A DNA stretch of 8,034 nucleotides from a virus (Duplodnaviria; Heunggongvirae; Uroviricota; Caudoviricetes), in IMG/VR virus record IMGVR_UViG_2695420602_000004; one strand, written 5' to 3'. Of the stretch, positions 862 through 7,639 are shown piece by piece. The number at the start of each line of letters is the position of its first letter. Positions within the stretch are counted from its first letter, which is position 1. Position numbers and translations under genes: made by a program. Below the pieces are notes generated by a model that saw only the letters and a list, made by a program, of their open reading frames with translations, searched no databases and was not told the DNA's origin.

Positions 862-1017
862 TCACTCACCTGGGTTTCTTTCCAGCCAGCGACGGGCACC
901 ATTTTCGGTTTTAAACGTTTTGCTTTTGGTATACGTCATCGCGGTGAACGTACCGTCCTGGTTGGGGAACACGCCACATACCAGAGATTCGCTGTTGCCA
1001 AGATCGATAGTATCCAT
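862..1017 (-). CDS. ydfA: YdfA-like small protein (51 aa, MDTIDLGNSESLVCG...)
   Basis: Internal ATG (1017..1015) of ORF 862..1173 has a GAGG SD 5 nt upstream; 51 aa equals remembered YdfA/YdaF size; first gene downstream of the DicA-like repressor on the same strand, as in Qin. Confidence 0.6.
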   Translation of the reverse strand: MDTIDLGNSESLVCGVFPNQDGTFTAMTYTKSKTFKTENGARRWLERNPGE

Positions 1018-1093
1018 GCTGACCTCATTTCCCCTTAACGCCGGGGTAGCGGAACTGTTTGCTGAGAACACCGTGCGGTGTCTTGATGGAGGT

Positions 1094-1146
1094 AATTTAG
1101 TTTTCTCATTATTTTTCGTCAAGGCTTTTTGATGAGAAAACTCAAG
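1094..1146 (-). promoter_or_regulatory. Candidate leftward promoter of the ydfA-B-C operon with overlapping operator (inverted repeat AGTTTTCTCAT / ATGAGAAAACT)
   Basis: Minus-strand TTGACG (plus 1117..1122), 17-nt spacer, TAAATT (plus 1094..1099); 11-bp inverted repeat arms at 1099..1109 and 1131..1141 flank the -35; the arm GAGAAAACTCAA recurs in the dicA/dicC intergenic region. Confidence 0.4.
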
Positions 1147-1209
1147 TATTGGCGCAAGATAAAGCCAATACATTGAAATGTAAGGCTTTAAAATTTTGTG
1201 AAGGGATGA

Positions 1210-1617
1210 TTATTGATGCTTGTTGCGTTTGCGAGCCTCTAATAGCTCGGTGAACAGGCGATTAAAATTCTCAACGCGGGCGCGGAGTTCGCTGAGTTGT
1301 GCTTGTTGCTCTGATTTAGGAAGTGCGCGATACAAACGCAACATCTCTAACTCATCTTCCGATAAGTCTAAGGCACTATCGAGTGAAACAGGGGGAGTTG
1401 GTGTTTTGTCCTCGTCGCCAAACAGTATCCAGGTTGGTGAACATTGCAATACCTCGGCGAGGCGATGCAAATTTTGCCCGCGCGGGGCTGTATGGTCACT
1501 TTCCCATAATGAAATTGATGAGCCAGATACGCCAGCAGCTTTGCTTAAACCGTTTTGACTTAAGCCTACCTGCTTACGTCTTTCTCTAATGCGTTGACCT
1601 AAAGTTTTCTCGTTCAT
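1210..1617 (-). CDS. dicA: DicA/RacR-like cI-type repressor (HTH_XRE), 135 aa from ATG at 1617; in-frame ATG at 1668 would give 152 aa
   Basis: Translation contains HTH region (GLSQNGLSKAAGVSGSSISLWE) and C-terminal ...LQCSPTWILFGDEDKTPTPP...SEQQAQLSELRARVENFNRLF closely resembling remembered DicA; 135 aa from the MNEKTLGQRIRERRK start equals DicA length. Neither candidate start has a strong SD. Confidence 0.8.
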   Translation of the reverse strand: MNEKTLGQRIRERRKQVGLSQNGLSKAAGVSGSSISLWESDHTAPRGQNLHRLAEVLQCSPTWILFGDEDKTPTPPVSLDSALDLSEDELEMLRLYRALPKSEQQAQLSELRARVENFNRLFTELLEARKRNKHQ

Positions 1618-1694
1618 ATTTAGATATCTTAATAACCCTTGACTTGAGATTCCTTGAGTGATTAGCATTGAGAAAACTCAATATTGGGGGTGCG
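1618..1694. promoter_or_regulatory. Divergent immunity-region promoter/operator between dicA-like and dicC-like genes
   Basis: TTGACT (1639..1644) with TAGCAT-like -10 (~1663..1668) for the rightward gene; TTGAG repeated at 1644, 1654 and 1668, with inverted CTCAA at 1677..1681 (TTGAGAAAACTCAA, 1668..1681) overlapping the -10/start region. Confidence 0.45.
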
Positions 1695-1922
1695 ATGTTT
1701 AAATCAGACGTAATTAATTTTTACGGTACGAAAGCCAAAGTAGCGAAAGCTGCTGGCGTTGACCCATCTGCTGTTTCTCAATGGCAAGAGCTGGTTCCTG
1801 AAGGTCGCGCGATGCGTCTACAGGAGGCATCTGGCGGCGAGCTTCTGTATGATCCCAAGGTTTATGACGAATATCGTAAGACGAAGCGGGCGGGGCGGTT
1901 GAACAATGAAAATCACTCCTGA
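1695..1922 (+). CDS. dicC: DicC/Cro-like small DNA-binding protein (75 aa)
   Basis: ATG at 1695 preceded by GGGGG SD-like run (1686..1690); divergent from the repressor; C-terminal ...PEGRAMRLQEASGGEL.YDPKVY.EYRKTKRAGRLNNENHS resembles remembered DicC; size ~76 aa. The track's 1668 start is TTG and less likely. Confidence 0.7.
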   Translation: MFKSDVINFYGTKAKVAKAAGVDPSAVSQWQELVPEGRAMRLQEASGGELLYDPKVYDEYRKTKRAGRLNNENHS

Positions 1923-2427
1923 ACAGGCTCGTGAGGCTCTGGATGCCTGGATATGTCGACCAGGAATGACACAGGAGCAGGCGACGATATTAATCACTGA
2001 AGCATTTTGGTCTTTGAAAGAGCGCCCGAACATCGATGTTCAGCGTGTCACAGATGAAGGTGGCGCGGTTGATCAGCGAGCGCTTGGCGTTAATCGAGTG
2101 AAGATATTCGAACGCTGGAAGGCTATTGACACCAGGGATAAGCGTGAAAAGTTCACGGCGCTAGTGCCTGCAATTATGGAGGCTATCCGGATTAGTGATT
2201 TCAGGTTGTATCGTGAAATTAGTGACGGGAAAAGCATTACGTACATGATCGCCGGGTTAAACAAAGAATATGGCGATGTGGTGGAGTCCGGACTGCTTTT
2301 TGCTGATCCTGCCGTAGTGGATCGTGAAACTGACGAACTTATAGAAAAAGCAATTGCTTTCAAACTTGCGTATCGACAGCAATACCAACAAAAAGCTGGA
2401 TGGAATTATGAGCCTTCTTTTTGCTGA
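1906..2427 (+). CDS. Hypothetical early protein (173 aa), YdaT-like by position (cII slot) and weak remembered similarity
   Basis: ATG at 1906 overlaps the dicC-like stop by 17 nt (coupled); follows the cro-like gene as ydaT follows ydaS in Rac. Family call is low-confidence. Confidence 0.6.
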   Translation: MKITPEQAREALDAWICRPGMTQEQATILITEAFWSLKERPNIDVQRVTDEGGAVDQRALGVNRVKIFERWKAIDTRDKREKFTALVPAIMEAIRISDFRLYREISDGKSITYMIAGLNKEYGDVVESGLLFADPAVVDRETDELIEKAIAFKLAYRQQYQQKAGWNYEPSFC

Positions 2428-3373
2428 ACGCCCACTGGTTATAAACACACAGCTTGCGATGAAGATTGGCTTAAACGAAGCCATTGTGTTGCAGCAGTTG
2501 CATTACTGGTTGAGAGATACCAATTCCGGCATGGAATGTGATGGTGTTCGCTGGATTTACAACACAACGGAACAATGGCTGGAACAGTTCCCGTTCTGGT
2601 CAGAGTCAACGTTAAAGCGCGCGTTTGCAAGTCTGAAAACGCTGGGGCTTTTACGTTGCGAAAAGCTCAATAAATCAAAGCGCGACATGACCAATTTCTA
2701 CACGATCAACTACGGGAGCGAGCTTTTAGATGGTGGCAAATTGAGCGAATCCATCAGTTCAAAATGCGCCGCTCCATCAGGTCAAAATGACACGATGGAA
2801 GAGGTCAAAATGAAACGCTCCATTGGTTCAAAACGACCCAATGTCATCGGGTCAAAATGGCCTGATGATCTTACAGAGAATACAACAGAGATTACTACAG
2901 AGAATAAAAACACTTTTCGTCCGGAAGCTTCGCAACCGGACCCGCAGACGGCTGAACAGGATTTTTTAACCCGGAACCCCGACGCGGTTGTGTTTAGTGC
3001 GAAAAAACGCCAGTGGGGTAGCAGGGAGGATTTGGCGTGTGCGCAGTGGATTTGGGGGCGGATCGTGAACCTTTACGAACAGGCTGCCAGCGACGATGGA
3101 GAGATCATGCGACCAAAAGAGCCTAACTGGACAGCCTGGGCCAATGACGTGCGCACAATGCGGATGCTGGATGGCAGAAGCCACAGACAAATTTGCGAAA
3201 TGTTTGGTCGGGTACAGCGAGATCAATTCTGGGTAAAAAACATCATGAGCCCGTCAAAACTCCGCAAAAAATGGGACGAACTGGTCATCCGCCTGGGACG
3301 TTCACCTGTACAGCGTTGTGTGAATCATATTTCTGAACCGGATACAGAAATTCCGCCTGGTTTCAGGGGATAA
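2408..3373 (+). CDS. Phage replication initiator (O-like; N-terminal HTH, low-complexity linker encoding ori, C-terminal DnaT-like region); start at ATG 2408 preferred over TTG 2354
   Basis: N-terminus MSLLFAERPLVINTQLAMKIGLNEAIVLQQLHYWL typical of lambdoid 'replication protein' HTH domains; iterons lie inside the central linker, as lambda ori lies inside O; ATG 2408 overlaps the upstream stop by 20 nt. Confidence 0.72.
   Translation: MSLLFAERPLVINTQLAMKIGLNEAIVLQQLHYWLRDTNSGMECDGVRWIYNTTEQWLEQFPFWSESTLKRAFASLKTLGLLRCEKLNKSKRDMTNFYTINYGSELLDGGKLSESISSKCAAPSGQNDTMEEVKMKRSIGSKRPNVIGSKWPDDLTENTTEITTENKNTFRPEASQPDPQTAEQDFLTRNPDAVVFSAKKRQWGSREDLACAQWIWGRIVNLYEQAASDDGEIMRPKEPNWTAWANDVRTMRMLDGRSHRQICEMFGRVQRDQFWVKNIMSPSKLRKKWDELVIRLGRSPVQRCVNHISEPDTEIPPGFRG
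2751..2910 (+). repeat. Candidate origin of replication: five direct G(G/T)TCAAAA(T/C)G iterons at 23-24 bp spacing, then an AT-rich segment with TACAGAGAATA x2
   Basis: Iteron cores at 2757..2766, 2780..2789, 2803..2812, 2826..2835, 2850..2859 (the first two extended as CCATCAG-GTCAAAATG); TACAGAGAATA at 2872..2882 and 2896..2906; all embedded in the initiator's low-complexity linker. Confidence 0.55.
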
Positions 3374-3413
3374 GTGTTGATTTTAGGGCATAAAGTAATG
3401 TTCAGGAGGACTT

Positions 3414-3815
3414 GTGGCAAAAGTTTTTACACAAGAAGAGCGGGAAAAAATTAAAGGGCAGGTGGTGGAACTCGTACGCCAGAGTGGGCGCGAGACATTA
3501 CGACAACTGGAAGCTAAAACTGGGGCAACAAGATATCTGATGAGCGTTCTGGCCAGAGAGCTGGTTGCCAGTGGCGATGTATACAGCTCTGGTTACGGGT
3601 TATTCCCGTCTGAACAGGCGCGTAAGGACTGGCAAAACGCCCGCAAAAAACTCTCGAGGGCAAAGGTGAAGAAAACAGCTGTGATTGATCCGGACCTTAT
3701 CTGGTCGTTACCTGATGGAGAAATACGTCGCTACGACAGTCGCCTAAACATAATCTGTCGCGAGTGCCGGATGAGTGAAGTTATGCAGCGCATACTGGCA
3801 TTTTATCAGGGATAA
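3414..3815 (+). CDS. ren: Ren-like protein (133 aa), GTG start
   Basis: AGGAGG (3404..3409) 4 nt before GTG 3414; C-terminus ...ICRECRMSEVMQRILAFYQG and an internal ...KTGATRYLMSVLARELVASG resemble remembered lambda Ren (...FKECRQSAAMKRVLAVYG; ...LTGATVTSINQAA...); sits right after the replication gene, as ren does in lambda. Confidence 0.55.
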   Translation: MAKVFTQEEREKIKGQVVELVRQSGRETLRQLEAKTGATRYLMSVLARELVASGDVYSSGYGLFPSEQARKDWQNARKKLSRAKVKKTAVIDPDLIWSLPDGEIRRYDSRLNIICRECRMSEVMQRILAFYQG

Positions 3816-3912
3816 TGTTAGGTATTTTAGACGTTACTAGATTAAAAAGCATTAGTTCAGGAGTGAATTGACATTCTCATTTTTCATGGCACAGGGTAGA
3901 TCTGGCGTGGTT

Positions 3913-3936
3913 GTCCGCTTTGTGCCAAAAGCGGAC
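3913..3936 (+). other. Strong stem-loop (9-bp stem GTCCGCTTT / AAAGCGGAC, 6-nt loop) in the ren-cargo intergenic region, no T-tract
   Basis: Direct reading of 3913..3936; not followed by a U-run on either strand, so not a canonical intrinsic terminator. Confidence 0.4.
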
Positions 3937-4004
3937 GCCTACGCCCTAACTAAGCTATTGTGTAATATACGGTACACAATAGCGAAAATTCTAAGCTTGG
4001 GAAT

Positions 4005-4937
4005 ATGGAAATCAACAAAGAAAAATTGTCAGGTTTACTTAACTACTTCGAGTCTCGCAAGAAATACGCTGCAACTCGAATATCTAGTTTATCCAGTCAG
4101 AATGAGATCTGTTTCGCTTTGTCAGGATTGACGTTTCGAAACGGGCCTTATGTTTTCCAAGACGTAGGTGAATTAAGGGAGGTACTTCATCCACCAGGAG
4201 AGATAGAGTTAGCCAAAGCGCTTAAGAGCAAGTCGCTACTCAGCGCTGTTGCTCGTCATATGCCCGCAGTTACGCATGAGCTTGCGTTGCAAAGCAGTGA
4301 GTCGAAATTTTCTCAATCAGACCTGACTATCGGATGGTGGATCATATCCGCGATCCGATGCCGCACACTCACCGATATACTTGTTCCTGCAGTAGCAAGT
4401 GCATCTTGGGATGTATTCCCTGCTCTTCAAGCCAACTCGTGTGAAGTCCAACTTCTTGAGGACGTGCCGGCAGTTCGGAGAATAAGCCCAAGTGTAGAGA
4501 TATCAGTAGAGTCTCTCGACTGGGTTCAAGAGAATCTCAAGCGTTGGATAGATCTGCTAGAGCAACCAGCATTCCGGCTCGCTATTGATTCTTTAACTAC
4601 TCACAACCAACACGCGAATTTGAGAATGGCTGCTGCTGCTTTATGGGCAGGATTTGAAGCGCTCTTTGGAATCAATTCAGAGCTTCGTTTTCGTCTTGCT
4701 CTTATGGCCGCAGCATATCTTGAGGAGCGAGGGCCTGATCGTTTAGCCACCTATCGTAGGGTTAAGAAGCTGTATGACTACCGTTCGAAGGCAGTGCATG
4801 GGGGAGCTACGTCAGATAACTTTTTAGTTGAGCATATAATTGAGGTACGAGTGCTTTTATCCCGATTAGTGTGTCGCATGACAGAGATCGGAAAAATGCC
4901 CACAACCGACGATTACGAGGAACGGCTTCTAACTTAA
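4005..4937 (+). CDS. 310-aa cargo protein with C-terminal R-x4-H motif (R260-S-K-A-V-H265); candidate HEPN-family RNase / abortive-infection-type defence protein
   Basis: Single long ORF with only a weak SD; 189-bp structured intergenic region upstream and 11-bp-stem hairpin downstream; motif YRSKAVHGG (nt 4782..4799) in what reads as an alpha-helical C-terminal region; the flanking genes are conserved lambdoid genes. Domain call is inference from the motif only. Confidence 0.7.
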   Translation: MEINKEKLSGLLNYFESRKKYAATRISSLSSQNEICFALSGLTFRNGPYVFQDVGELREVLHPPGEIELAKALKSKSLLSAVARHMPAVTHELALQSSESKFSQSDLTIGWWIISAIRCRTLTDILVPAVASASWDVFPALQANSCEVQLLEDVPAVRRISPSVEISVESLDWVQENLKRWIDLLEQPAFRLAIDSLTTHNQHANLRMAAAALWAGFEALFGINSELRFRLALMAAAYLEERGPDRLATYRRVKKLYDYRSKAVHGGATSDNFLVEHIIEVRVLLSRLVCRMTEIGKMPTTDDYEERLLT

Positions 4938-4997
4938 GGCTTTTTCTAAGGTAACTTGGAAAAACGCTTGTTTTATCTATACACAGTAAGCCTAACT

Positions 4998-5029
4998 TCA
5001 GTTAACCCGCAATAATGAGGGTTAACTGA
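4998..5029 (+). other. Perfect 11-bp-arm inverted repeat TCAGTTAACCC-N10-GGGTTAACTGA, 61 bp downstream of the cargo gene
   Basis: Direct reading; no adjacent T-tract on either strand, so either a T-tract-less transcript-end or stability hairpin or a protein-binding palindrome; CAGTTAAC recurs at 5509..5516 in the hok leader. Confidence 0.4.
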
Positions 5030-5318
5030 TCAACCTCCAAGATTAGGTACAATGAAGTGGTCAACAAAAACTGGCCACCGCAAGAAAACACGTCTATGTC
5101 AGTATTTATTCCGAACTTCCGTTGTTCGCTCAAAGCGGACTAAAAGGTTAGCTTGTGTCGGACTTTGCGTATTAAAAGAAGTGCAGGTGGTGACTAGTGG
5201 TTGAGCCCCATTTCCACAGAAAAAATCAGAGAAACTATACCCAATAGTTGTATTGAATCACTGACGAGACAGCCTCATATTCATCAGGACTGGTGTACGT
5301 CCAATACAGGAGGTTGTG

Positions 5319-5408
5319 GTGCTGGTTCTCAAATGTGCGCTGGCTATTACGGCTGTAATGGCGATTTATTGTCTTGCTATTGTTCTTATGGATCGCCTTT
5401 CTGACTGA
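5319..5408 (+). CDS. Candidate 29-aa hydrophobic membrane peptide (MLVLKCALAITAVMAIYCLAIVLMDRLSD), GTG start
   Basis: AGGAGG (5308..5313) 5 nt upstream of GTG 5319; product is one predicted transmembrane helix with a charged tail, the profile of small type I toxins; not in the supplied ORF track. Could be chance. Confidence 0.3.
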   Translation: MLVLKCALAITAVMAIYCLAIVLMDRLSD

Positions 5409-5416
5409 TTTCATAT

Positions 5417-5444
5417 TGGCGAGGTAACGGTAGTTAAGTAGAAT
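5417..5444 (+). promoter_or_regulatory. Candidate hok mRNA promoter (TTGGCG-16-TAGAAT)
   Basis: -35-like 5417..5422 and -10-like 5439..5444 place a start near 5451, the 5' end of the segment complementary to the 3' end of the hok transcript (5825..5837). Confidence 0.3.
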
Positions 5445-5619
5445 GGCTGCGGGTGCTTGAGGCTATCTGCCTCGGGCATGAACACCAACGGCAGATAGAG
5501 AAAAGCCCCAGTTAACATTACGCGTCCTGCAAGACGCTTAACATTAATCTGAGGCCAATTTCATGCTAGACACATGTAGGTTAGCCTCTTACGTGCCGAA
5601 AGGCAAGGAGAAGCAGGCT

Positions 5620-5775
5620 ATGAAGCAGCAAAAGGCGATGTTAATCGCCCTGATCGTCATCTGTTTAACCGTCATAGTGACGGCACTGGTAACGAGGAAA
5701 GACCTCTGCGAGGTACGAATCCGAACCGGCCAGACGGAGGTCGCTGTCTTCACAGCTTACGAACCTGAGGAGTAA
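5620..5775 (+). CDS. hokD: Hok-family type I toxin (51 aa, MKQQKAMLIALIVICLTVIVTALVTRKDLCEVRIRTGQTEVAVFTAYEPEE), HokD/RelF-like
   Basis: Sequence recognised as Hok family (TM helix plus conserved LCE.R....EVA.F.AYE); an in-frame upstream ATG at 5563 gives a 70-codon extended ORF; SD-like AAGGAG at 5604..5609. Confidence 0.85.
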   Translation: MKQQKAMLIALIVICLTVIVTALVTRKDLCEVRIRTGQTEVAVFTAYEPEE

Positions 5776-5845
5776 GAGACCCGGCGAGGGAGAAATCCCT
5801 CGCCACCTCTGATGTGGCAGGCATCCTCAACGCACCCGCACTTAA

Positions 5846-5870
5846 CCCGCTTCGGCGGGTTTTTGTTTTT
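5846..5870 (+). terminator. Rho-independent terminator at the 3' end of the hok transcript (CCCGC-TTCG-GCGGG + T-run)
   Basis: GC-rich 5-bp stem with tetraloop at 5846..5859, followed by TTTTTGTTTTT at 5860..5870. Confidence 0.65.
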
Positions 5871-5883
5871 ATTTTCAACGCGT

Positions 5884-5913
5884 TTGAAGTTCTGGACGGT
5901 GCCGGAATAGAAT
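5884..5913 (+). promoter_or_regulatory. Candidate promoter for rem-like gene (TTGAAG-18-TAGAAT)
   Basis: Hexamers at 5884..5889 and 5908..5913 downstream of the hok terminator; weak, sequence-only. Confidence 0.25.
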
Positions 5914-5991
5914 CAAAAATACTTAAGTAGCGCGCAGGGATAAGAGGGATGGTCCCTTAAAGGGGAGAGCTAATTATCCGGAAGGATTCTG

Positions 5992-6243
5992 ATGATGAAC
6001 ATCGAAGAACTGCGTAAAATTTTTTGTGAAGATGGCCTCTATGCTGTGTGCGTTGAAAATGGAAATCTTGTTAGTCATTACCGCATTATGTGTTTGCGAA
6101 AGAATGGGGCTGCGTTAATTAATTTTGTGGATGGTCGAGTGACAGACGGATTTATCTTGCGCGAAGGTGAGTTTGTCACTTCATTACAGGCACTGAAAGA
6201 GATCGGAATAAAAGCAGGCTTTTCAGCTTTTGCAGAAGAATAA
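5992..6243 (+). CDS. rem: Rem-like small prophage protein (83 aa)
   Basis: GAAGGA SD (5981..5986) 5 nt before ATG 5992; 83 aa and position immediately next to hok match remembered Qin rem. Confidence 0.65.
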   Translation: MMNIEELRKIFCEDGLYAVCVENGNLVSHYRIMCLRKNGAALINFVDGRVTDGFILREGEFVTSLQALKEIGIKAGFSAFAEE

Positions 6244-6309
6244 ACTCATCTACAATCTTGCGCGGGGCTGAACTCCCGCTGAGTAACACCGTGCCACCGG
6301 AGAAAACCG

Positions 6310-6588
6310 ATGGCACGCAACGTAAAATATTACAATTCTGATAATTCGCCCGTTCTTGCCTGCACGCACGAGCGGTATTCTCACGCATTCAAGTCTGAAT
6401 GGTTCCAACACCCTCCATGCACTGAAGAGCAGGCTGAATGGATAATTCAGTGTTACCGCAGGCGCGGATACGAGGTTAAGAAAGCCCTTAGTCTCGACTA
6501 CCGTCACTGGATAATCTCAGTCAGATTGCCTTACTCCGAACGCCCACCGCGTCCGTCCCGTACATTCCAGCAACGCATCTGGAGGTAA
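6310..6588 (+). CDS. Hypothetical protein (92 aa), translationally coupled to downstream DUF968 gene
   Basis: GGAG (6299..6302) 7 nt before ATG 6310; stop TAA 6586..6588 lies inside the downstream gene's RBS (GGAGG 6581..6585). Confidence 0.6.
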   Translation: MARNVKYYNSDNSPVLACTHERYSHAFKSEWFQHPPCTEEQAEWIIQCYRRRGYEVKKALSLDYRHWIISVRLPYSERPPRPSRTFQQRIWR

Positions 6589-6589
6589 C

Positions 6590-7639
6590 GTGCGGGTATT
6601 ACTTCGACCTGTTCTGGTACCGGAACTCGGGCTGGTGGTCGTTAAGCCGGGCCGTGAATCCATGCCGGTATTCCACAATACCCGGGTACTGGTGGAGCCG
6701 GAACCGAAAAGCATGCGTAATCTGCCGTCCGGGGTCGTTCCTGCCGTTCGCCAGCCGCTGGTGGAAGACAAAACATTGCTGCCGTTTTTCAGTAACGCAC
6801 GGGTAATTCGTGCTGCTGGTGGTGCTGGTGCATTGTCTGACTGGCTGTTGCGCCATATTAAATCCTGCCAGTGGCCACACGGCGATTATCATCACAGCGA
6901 AACCGTTATTCACCGATATGGTACCGGCGCAATGGTGTTGTGCTGGCACTGCGACAACCAGCTGCGTGACCAGACATCCGAATCACTCGAGCAACTTGCT
7001 CATCAAAACCTGTCAGCATGGATGATTGACGTCATCGGTCACGCAATAAGCGGTACGCAGGAGCGTGAATTATCTCTGGCTGAATTATCCTGGTGGGCGC
7101 TCCGCAATCAGCTGGCGGACGCGCTACCGGAAGCGGTATTACGTCGCTCGCTGGGATTACCAGCGGAAAAAATCTGCTCGGTGTACCGCGAAAGCGACAT
7201 CGTACCGGGAGAGCAGACCGCCACCAGCATATTGAAACAGCGCACAAAAAATCTTGCACCGTTGCCTCACGCCCACCAGCAACAAAACCCATCACAGGAA
7301 AAGACGGTGGTAAGCATCACCGTTGATCCAGAGTCTCCGGAATCTTTCATGAAGCTGCCTAAACGTCACCGTTGGGTTAAGGAGAAATACACACGCTGGG
7401 TTAAGACACAGCCGTGTGCTTGCTGCGGGATGCCAGCCGACGATCCGCATCATCTGATTGGTCACGGGCAGGGCGGAATGGGAACCAAAGCACATGATCT
7501 CTTTGTGTTGCCTTTGTGCAGAAAGCATCACGACGAGTTGCATACGGATACCGTGGCATTTGAAGAGAAGTATGGCTCCCAACTGGAGCTGATTTTTCGA
7601 TTTATCGATCGCGCGCTGGCAATTGGTGTGCTGGCCTAA
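6590..7639 (+). CDS. ydfU: DUF968-type prophage protein with C-terminal HNH-like Cys/His cluster (349 aa), YdfU-like; GTG start
   Basis: GGAGG 4 nt before GTG 6590; C-terminus [43 protein letters not shown] has CxxC...HH...C..HH..H spacing typical of HNH-type zinc-finger nucleases; size and position before Q match remembered Qin YdfU. Confidence 0.72.

Follow-up and report, generated by a model that had tools for sequence, protein, structure and literature searches.

The described systems closest to the locus analyzed here are the ren gene of phage lambda, the single-protein defence effectors with a HEPN domain, and the variable fun locus of P2-like phages. Toothman and Herskowitz reportedly found in 1980 that Ren lets lambda escape Rex exclusion and excludes nothing itself; ren is defined genetically by this resistance. 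The lambda ren gene is non-essential (PMC10695390), and Ren was described as 'likely involved in DNA replication', with two-hybrid contacts of the Rex proteins with O and Ren (10.1101/2021.04.19.439022). A HEPN defence effector for comparison is Tha of a staphylococcal prophage (PMC11087260), and the locus between G and FI (Z/fun) in P2-like phages is the 'fun' defence hotspot (Vassallo et al. 2022, PMC9519451). We analyzed an 8,034-nt stretch of DNA from a virus of the Caudoviricetes (IMG/VR record IMGVR_UViG_2695420602_000004), here called the window, in which a Ren-like gene is followed by a structured spacer and a gene for a HEPN protein. A previous sequence-only reading had taken this interval for an exclusion-type locus, formed either by independent accessory genes in one hotspot or by a functionally linked regulator and effector. 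The reading that we favour as probable is that the interval consists of a backbone gene of the Ren family and an unrelated, self-contained HEPN cassette in a defence hotspot, with the HEPN protein acting as a stand-alone defence or abortive-infection RNase. The features of the interval are as follows.

3400-3409, + strand: Shine-Dalgarno region of the Ren-like gene, GTTCAGGAGG, whose AGGAGG ends 4 nt before the GTG at 3414
3414-3815, + strand: Ren-like (DUF977) gene, 133 aa, GTG start, last gene of the replication module
3816-4004, + strand: structured spacer, 189 bp, a chimera of phage backbone to ~3937 and cassette from ~3912
3855-3863, + strand: second copy of the 9-mer GTTCAGGAG, then a conserved TTGACA at 3868-3873
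3887-3900, + strand: left 'pad' motif TGGCACAGGGTAGA, upstream of hairpin A
3913-3936, + strand: hairpin A, GTCCGCTTTGTGCCAAAAGCGGAC, GC-rich, with an extended stem at 3905-3945 (-25.8 kcal/mol); left cassette boundary and mosaic junction
3954-3983, + strand: perfect 11-bp palindrome GCTATTGTGTA-N8-TACACAATAGC, inside the cassette and 21 nt 5' of the HEPN start codon
4005-4937, + strand: HEPN cargo gene, 310 aa, with an N-terminal alpha/beta domain (~1-165) and a C-terminal HEPN domain (~168-310)
5117-5140, + strand: hairpin B, TTCCGTTGTTCGCTCAAAGCGGAC, with the arms of hairpin A and another loop; right cassette boundary
3913-5140, + strand: portable HEPN cassette of ~1.23 kb (hairpin A, palindrome, gene, hairpin B), 99.2-99.3% identical to its counterparts in four other backbones

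The Ren-like gene and the HEPN gene were found to be independent of each other and neighbours by genome architecture. Segment 3300-5100, used as a query, matched 4036 of 5426 complete E. coli genomes, and the full segment with both genes was present in 14 of them at 99.8-99.9% identity. The HEPN gene was found in 27 of the 5426 genomes, with all copies at least 99.4% identical, and it was adjacent to the Ren-like gene in 14; the remaining 13 genomes had no Ren-like gene upstream of it. Four of these 13 sites were inspected and proved to be the yagU island, tRNA-Pro islands by pao or vat, and a P2-like prophage (strain LD27-1) with the cassette between the tail-fibre-assembly and tail-sheath genes. 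Six loci with HEPN homologues in five other bacterial groups, namely Enterobacter (two), Pseudomonas, Paraburkholderia, Planctomycetota and Blastocatellia, lay in varied mobile contexts and showed no DUF977 gene and no conserved neighbour. Co-variation across related genomes had been chosen beforehand as the refuting test for the two genes, and they did not co-vary. Thus, what stood of the earlier proposal of independent accessory genes in one hotspot was the independence and the cargo nature of the HEPN gene; the Ren-like gene is backbone and not an accessory, and the segment carrying it matches genomes in the numbers given above.

The HEPN gene lies in a cassette with defined boundaries. BLAST alignments to phage mEp460 covered 874-3937 and 5126-7632 of the window, with different cargo between them, and the cassette block common to other backbones extended from 3912/3913/3917 to 5132/5140/5141. 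Both junctions fell inside short hairpins in these alignments, and the phage backbone resumes at 5126. The 189-bp length and the structured nature of the spacer before the HEPN-like gene, both claimed from the sequence earlier, were borne out. Its minimum free energy was -60.2 kcal/mol (z = -4.36), and none of 200 shuffles was equally stable; the stability stems from hairpin A and the perfect palindrome. The palindrome moves with the cassette in every backbone and could serve as an operator or as a 5' stem-loop of the mRNA. Neither hairpin A nor the palindrome is followed by a T-run, and a consensus scan, which weak signals could escape, called no + strand terminator in the spacer or after the HEPN gene. 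An Rfam scan returned sok only, with no match for the spacer or the hairpins. A pad motif, TGGCACAG[G/A]GTA[G/A]A, was observed 12-25 nt 5' of hairpin A in 22 of 49 distinct left flanks, and it is common to lambdoid and P2-type landing pads (including phage P2), although these phages are otherwise unrelated.

The cassette occupies a variable slot that has the Ren-like gene on its left and hok on its right. Of 44 viral contigs that contain hairpin A, 37 have the end of the Ren-like gene 93-101 bp before the hairpin, and the distance to hok in hairpin-A contigs is 1650, ~1866, 2526, 2663, 3862 or 4485 bp. A sample of lambdoid phages held at least 11 cargo types in the slot. Among these were a 595-aa DUF7380/DUF4209 protein corresponding to PADLOC PDC-S39 (E 3e-102), a protein of 358 aa that has an RNHLVH motif, matches HEPN_RES_NTD1 weakly and stands beside a GNAT-like partner, an XRE-cupin regulator accompanied by a GNAT protein, and insertion sequence-disrupted versions of slot cargoes. 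The slot cargo of mEp460 is PD-T7-1 (E 4e-157), which was validated as a defence system by Vassallo et al. (PMC9519451). With at least 11 alternative cargoes after the Ren-like gene, the arrangement is that of a backbone gene followed by a defence hotspot. Literature searches, as far as they reached, gave no description of the lambdoid site after the Ren-like gene as a hotspot.

Further slot cargoes carry Rx4H motifs (RNHLVH, RNQLAH, RNEIIH, RNNLLH, RNSIEH, RCSYVH and RNKFAH), which were judged by eye except for the DUF4209/PDC-S39 and HEPN_RES_NTD1 matches. Their presence in several unrelated cargoes, located as listed here, suggests that HEPN effectors are over-represented among these cassettes.

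Locus L006, slot +10 to +2103: cargo with an Rx4H motif
Locus L008, slot +122 to +1909, - strand: cargo with an Rx4H motif
Clusters C9, C10, C27, C32 and C33: cargoes with Rx4H motifs

The 310-aa protein is a genuine member of the HEPN superfamily from an uncurated family. Its C-terminal domain has the all-alpha helical-bundle fold of HEPN domains, and the AF2 model of the protein had a pLDDT of 90.9. The Rx4H motif, R260-S-K-A-V-H265, was invariant in 33 homologues with identities down to 41%, as were G266, E226, R230, T199, H200, E152, D153, P64, E66 and E68. The family comprises ~220-250 clusters among 5.8 billion, consists of stand-alone proteins of 300-320 aa, of which none is annotated by Pfam, and ranges over Enterobacterales, Pseudomonas, Burkholderia, Planctomycetota and Acidobacteriota. 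A profile search from the family alignment added ~27 proteins, all from the family itself, and gave no bridge to a named HEPN family; the 33 homologues gave no match at E<=1 to HEPN families, and a PDB sequence-profile search with the protein returned nothing. The RefSeq name of the protein is nonetheless 'HEPN domain-containing protein'.

With single-protein HEPN abortive-infection and defence effectors and with HEPN toxins (HEPN-MNT, 7ae2/8xdj; the HEPN domain of AbiA, 8oz7), the protein shares the C-terminal helical bundle with Rx4H, and it resembles the single-protein effectors in being prophage-borne, encoded by a single gene and located inside a defence hotspot. Unlike them, it gives no profile match, lacks an MNT or antitoxin partner and has its own alpha/beta N-terminal domain of ~165 aa. 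No conserved partner of the MNT nucleotidyltransferase or antitoxin kind was found, with neighbours that differ in four E. coli backbones and six homologue loci. As to these neighbours, the HEPN gene is closely followed by a DUF4160 gene in the yagU island of E. coli (L003, 7337-7714) and likewise in a Pseudomonas genome (L054, 7067-7765), where DUF2442 accompanies it; this may be a coincidence or a shared island neighbourhood. In Enterobacter hormaechei (L050-L053, 3262-4617), the HEPN homologue is divergent to an FRG-domain protein in a satellite-like element with a D5-type primase.

Judged from fold, motif and position in a defence hotspot, the protein is most likely a new candidate single-gene abortive-infection or defence RNase. 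We infer its RNase activity, its anti-phage role, its expression in the lysogen and the role of its N-terminal domain. The N-terminal domain would either hold the RNase inactive or detect infection; once a superinfecting phage enters, RNA cleavage by the RNase would bring the infection to an abortive end, which would protect the lysogen population. The Ren-like protein would be dispensable for this defence.

Several observations weigh against this interpretation of the interval. In all 14 genomes with both genes, the two share a strand and no terminator can be recognised in between, so that they may still be co-transcribed after induction. A consensus scan, which weak or non-consensus signals could escape, called no sigma-70-like promoter on the + strand of the spacer, and expression in a repressed lysogen is therefore only inferred. 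The HEPN protein had no Pfam match at E<=10 and no NCBIfam match, and PADLOC-DB v2 gave no match at E<=0.1 for either the HEPN protein or the Ren-like protein. The N-terminal domain had no assignable fold, and Foldseek searches against PDB and BFVD returned nothing significant. Finally, some slot cargoes, judged by eye, are not defence genes (HAD with NUDIX, LysR with SDR).

The same adjacency is what would be expected if the Ren-like winged-helix protein regulated or neutralised the HEPN effector, as regulator and effector or as antitoxin and toxin of one exclusion locus. The genes are adjacent and on one strand without a terminator-like site between them, the palindrome in the spacer could serve as an operator, and DUF977 has been placed among winged-helix folds (PMC2686095). 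However, the HEPN cassette is 99% identical in four backbones without DUF977, at least 11 other cargoes also come after the DUF977 gene, the six distant homologue loci lack a DUF977 neighbour, and the palindrome is part of the cassette and not of the Ren-like side. The distribution of the two genes largely refutes a linked pair, contrary to one of the options raised earlier, and we consider such a pair very improbable. If the HEPN protein stood alone, it could still be a selfish addiction toxin or a host-manipulation RNase that serves the mobile element through prophage stabilisation or host shut-off in lytic growth. This is improbable, as no antitoxin-like partner is conserved beside any homologue and validated defence systems occupy both the same slot and the P2 fun slot. 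It is also conceivable that the HEPN-like domain plays no catalytic part and serves to bind nucleotides or proteins, in a gene with another accessory function. The R-x4-H dyad, S261 and G266 do not vary even among homologues with as little as 41% identity, though, and the dyad is usually lost in non-catalytic HEPN domains; we give this last explanation somewhat less credence than the addiction toxin. A stand-alone defence RNase in a portable cassette thus remains the reading that we prefer.

The hairpins at the cassette boundaries recur around other cargoes. Hairpin A has the consensus GTCCGCT-NN-GTGCCA-NN-AGCGGAC and hairpin B the consensus GTCCGCT-NN-TCGCTC-NN-AGCGGAC, both 24 nt long. Counted among the 186 loci listed, there were at least 119 A and at least 144 B hairpins; viral contigs with hairpin B refer to the matches listed. 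In these loci, the 101 successive same-strand pairs comprised 70 A-then-B pairs at long range, 19 B-then-A pairs at 16-19 nt and 12 others, and the order A-cargo-B-(16-19 nt)-A was kept in 89 of the 101. Grouped by cargo, the 70 A-to-B units form 40 clusters (0.5-5.9 kb), which occur in the lambdoid slot, the G/FI slot of P2 and other places. In islands, composites of B and A separated by 16-19 nt, ~66 nt in all, stand between successive cargo genes. The bounded cargoes include a CBASS cyclase, the reverse transcriptase DRT RT_UG17, a ThsA-like SIR2 protein, a ThsB-like TIR protein, PDC-S35, and DarT beside a partner whose macro domain was recognised by eye. In terms of named systems, CBASS, DarTG, a DRT and parts of Thoeris are represented, next to PD-T7-1, PDC-S39, P2 fun(Z) and the HEPN gene. 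Positions at which the arrangement of hairpins A and B was seen outside the window are the following.

Locus L003, 5960-6025, 7206-7271 and 7782-7839: hairpin arrangement
Locus L057, 2728-4072: hairpin arrangement
Locus L058, 2977-6157: hairpin arrangement
Locus L188, 436-459: hairpin arrangement

The possibility that A and B are REP-like high-copy repeats was rejected, as the median number of places in a genome was 1 and the maximum 2. Beside the HEPN homologues in other genera, hairpins A and B were absent.

The same hairpins are found in phage P2. The HEPN cassette in strain LD27-1 occupies the P2 G/FI (Z/fun) locus, and in phage P2 itself fun(Z) has an A hairpin, GTCCACTCTGTGCCAAAAGCGGAC, on one side and a B hairpin of degenerate sequence, TTCCGCTTCTCGCTCAAAGGAAAC, on the other, at these positions.

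Phage P2 (AF063097), ~15335-15358 (L188, 436-459): hairpin beside fun(Z)
Phage P2 (AF063097), ~17432-17455 (L189, 233-256): hairpin beside fun(Z)

The P2 fun locus is thus alike in holding the identical HEPN cassette and in having its own fun(Z) bounded by A and B, whereas the slot of the window belongs to a lambdoid phage and follows a Ren-like gene. The P2-side hairpins may already be described in what Nilsson et al. are said to have reported in 2004. The P2 fun(Z) gene is the classical P2 exclusion gene, and its pad has a 9-bp inverted repeat, AATCTGA(C)A / TGTCAGATT. In the P2-like phage P37, the whole pad is absent and the G terminator stands alone at the site.

The arrangement resembles integron attC cassettes and IS200/IS605-type elements in its promoter-poor cassettes of 0.5-6 kb, chained head to tail, and it resembles attC in its conserved, imperfectly palindromic separator of ~66 nt and in its defence-rich cargo. 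It differs from integrons in having no GTTRRRY core, in having two hairpins (GTCCGCT-N10-AGCGGAC) in place of a single attC, and in its 1-2 places per genome. No integron integrase or Y1 transposase was found beside the arrays inspected, in which no systematic search was made. Hairpins A and B might, as we tentatively suggest, mark the two ends of a system dedicated to the exchange of gene cassettes, with integron-like logic and without a known recombinase. Such a system, if it exists, might shuttle defence genes among the lambdoid slot after the Ren-like gene, the P2 G/FI 'fun' slot and the island arrays of Enterobacteriaceae, although we hold this to be doubtful. The structured spacer of the window could then, with the same reservation, be one recombination end of the system.

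A more plausible account, if one short of probable, is that the hairpins are ordinary transcription or RNA-stability elements of 'morons' and that the junctions coincide with them only through recombination of related phages at short homologies, which phage recombinases are able to use. All four pairings of hairpin arms average 6.0-6.4 of 7, so that no arm-arm covariation singles out one pairing scheme and the crossover point is not revealed; no recombinase was found, and the P2-like phage without the pad has a plain terminator at the site. On the other hand, no T-run follows either hairpin, the arms and the loop cores (GTGCCA versus TCGCTC) are kept in 47 distinct A-to-B combinations of hairpins and length with unrelated cargo, the A-cargo-B-A order is kept as counted above, and the cargo lies on either strand, which would be odd for a transcript-linked element. 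With regard to the classical 'moron' layout, a consensus scan called neither a + strand sigma-70 promoter nor a rho-independent terminator around the cassette, with the proviso that weak signals could escape it. Both a site-specific cassette system and conserved 'boundary sequences' used by general recombination would fit these data.

The resemblance of the 133-aa protein to lambda Ren, with an ECR pattern at its C-terminus, had been noticed from the sequence and was confirmed by the alignment. The protein matched phrog_142, 'Ren-like exclusion protein', over its full length (E 7.6e-44, residues 1-133), as did lambda Ren (E 1.6e-41, residues 1-95), and it matched Pfam DUF977 (PF06163; E 7e-27, 94.5 bits against a gathering threshold of 22.1, residues 1-133). 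BLASTP against lambda Ren aligned the C-terminal 20 aa only, with 10/20 identities (50%) and a pairwise E of 4e-6. In a 13-sequence alignment that included lambda Ren, N112, E117, C118, R119, S121, M124 and R126 were invariant, and the ECRxSxxMxRxL pattern is real because these residues stay invariant once lambda Ren is included. The search for close DUF977 homologues gave only relatives of at least 89% identity, and the diversity of the alignment came from a representative search. The protein consists of an N-terminal winged-helix domain and a C-terminal N-x-I-C-x-ECR-x-S-x-x-M-x-R-x-L motif. With lambda Ren it shares phrog_142 over both full lengths, the C-terminal N-x-[IV]-x-x-ECR-x-S-x-x-M-x-R-[IV]-L, the N-terminal winged helix (lambda Ren gave weak MarR/Crp matches in a profile scan) and the position directly after replication genes. 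The Ren-like gene follows the O-like gene in the rightward early operon, and the order in lambda is O, P, ren. Its product has 133 aa versus 96 aa in lambda Ren, with an extra linker of 35-40 residues, and it passes the Pfam DUF977 model that lambda Ren fails to reach. Whereas lambda ren is followed by the intrinsic terminator tR2, the Ren-like gene is followed by a T-less hairpin and the cargo slot, and unlike lambda the window contains no rexAB genes. YdaW of the E. coli Rac prophage is a DUF977 relative. A literature search for 'LygF', the label of Ren-like proteins in several phage records, found no work that bears on the phage protein. As part of the backbone, the Ren-like gene closes the replication module of cro, YdaT, O-like and Ren-like genes; the view of it as an accessory exclusion gene in a hotspot found no support.

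A repeated 9-mer, GTTCAGGAG, had also been pointed out before the Ren-like start and in the spacer, with coordinates (3401-3409 and 3860-3868) that were wrong by 1 and by 5. The + strand copies are at 3400-3408 and 3855-3863, and 1916-1924 holds a third in minus-strand orientation. Same-strand pairs of repeated 9-mers number 191 in the window versus ~128 in shuffles. A repeated 9-mer is expected by chance, one singled out afterwards says little, and this one carries no weight for a linkage of the two genes. The copy upstream of the Ren-like gene is nothing but its Shine-Dalgarno region. The copy in the spacer reads GTTCAGATG in the sister backbone class, so that the 9-mer is not conserved there. 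An 87-aa open reading frame at 3868-4131 was rejected as a gene, as it crosses hairpin A into the cassette and overlaps the HEPN start, and its AGGAG is not conserved.

As a whole, the window represents the early-right region of a lambdoid, mEp460/Qin-type prophage from E. coli, with these features outside the interval.

1-393: IS1 fragment (C-terminal part of InsB), 99.7% identical to IS1A in locus L004
1210-1668, - strand: CI-like repressor gene
1668-1922: cro gene
1906-2427: YdaT-family gene
2354-3373: O-like replication initiator gene
5451-5775, + strand: hok/sok module, with sok RNA at 5451-5625 and a hokD-like open reading frame at 5563-5775

The IS1 fragment stands in place of the genes on the dicB/ydfA side, left of the repressor, in the related prophages L002 and L005, and homology of the window to L002 begins only at 760. 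At its C-terminus, the O-like initiator ends in a tail with a weak resemblance to DnaT (NCBIfam NF002770, residues 320-339, E 0.006). Between it and the Ren-like gene there is no gene for a helicase loader of the P/DnaC type, in which lambda and Rac differ. The hok/sok module is a complete type I toxin-antitoxin system (Rfam sok, 115 bits; Pfam HOK_GEF, E 3e-23), is the conserved right-hand flank of the cargo slot and belongs to the backbone. To its right lie rem, a DUF968 gene and the start of Q. Comparison with the IMG/VR contig L030 covered six marker proteins in the stretch from O-like to DUF968, and each was 100% identical.

These results do away with a tempting but wrong functional link: genes of the Ren-like kind belong to the backbone and are ubiquitous, and 'exclusion protein' as a PHROG label does not point to a defence locus. 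In lambdoid prophages of the mEp460/Qin type, the position that follows the Ren-like gene is a defence hotspot with defined boundaries, which can be mined for further systems, and the shared arrangement of hairpins A and B gives a concrete starting point for testing how defence genes travel among phage backbones and islands that are unrelated. The compact family of 310-aa HEPN proteins, which extends from Enterobacterales to Planctomycetota, is nominated as a candidate new single-gene anti-phage system that can be tested.

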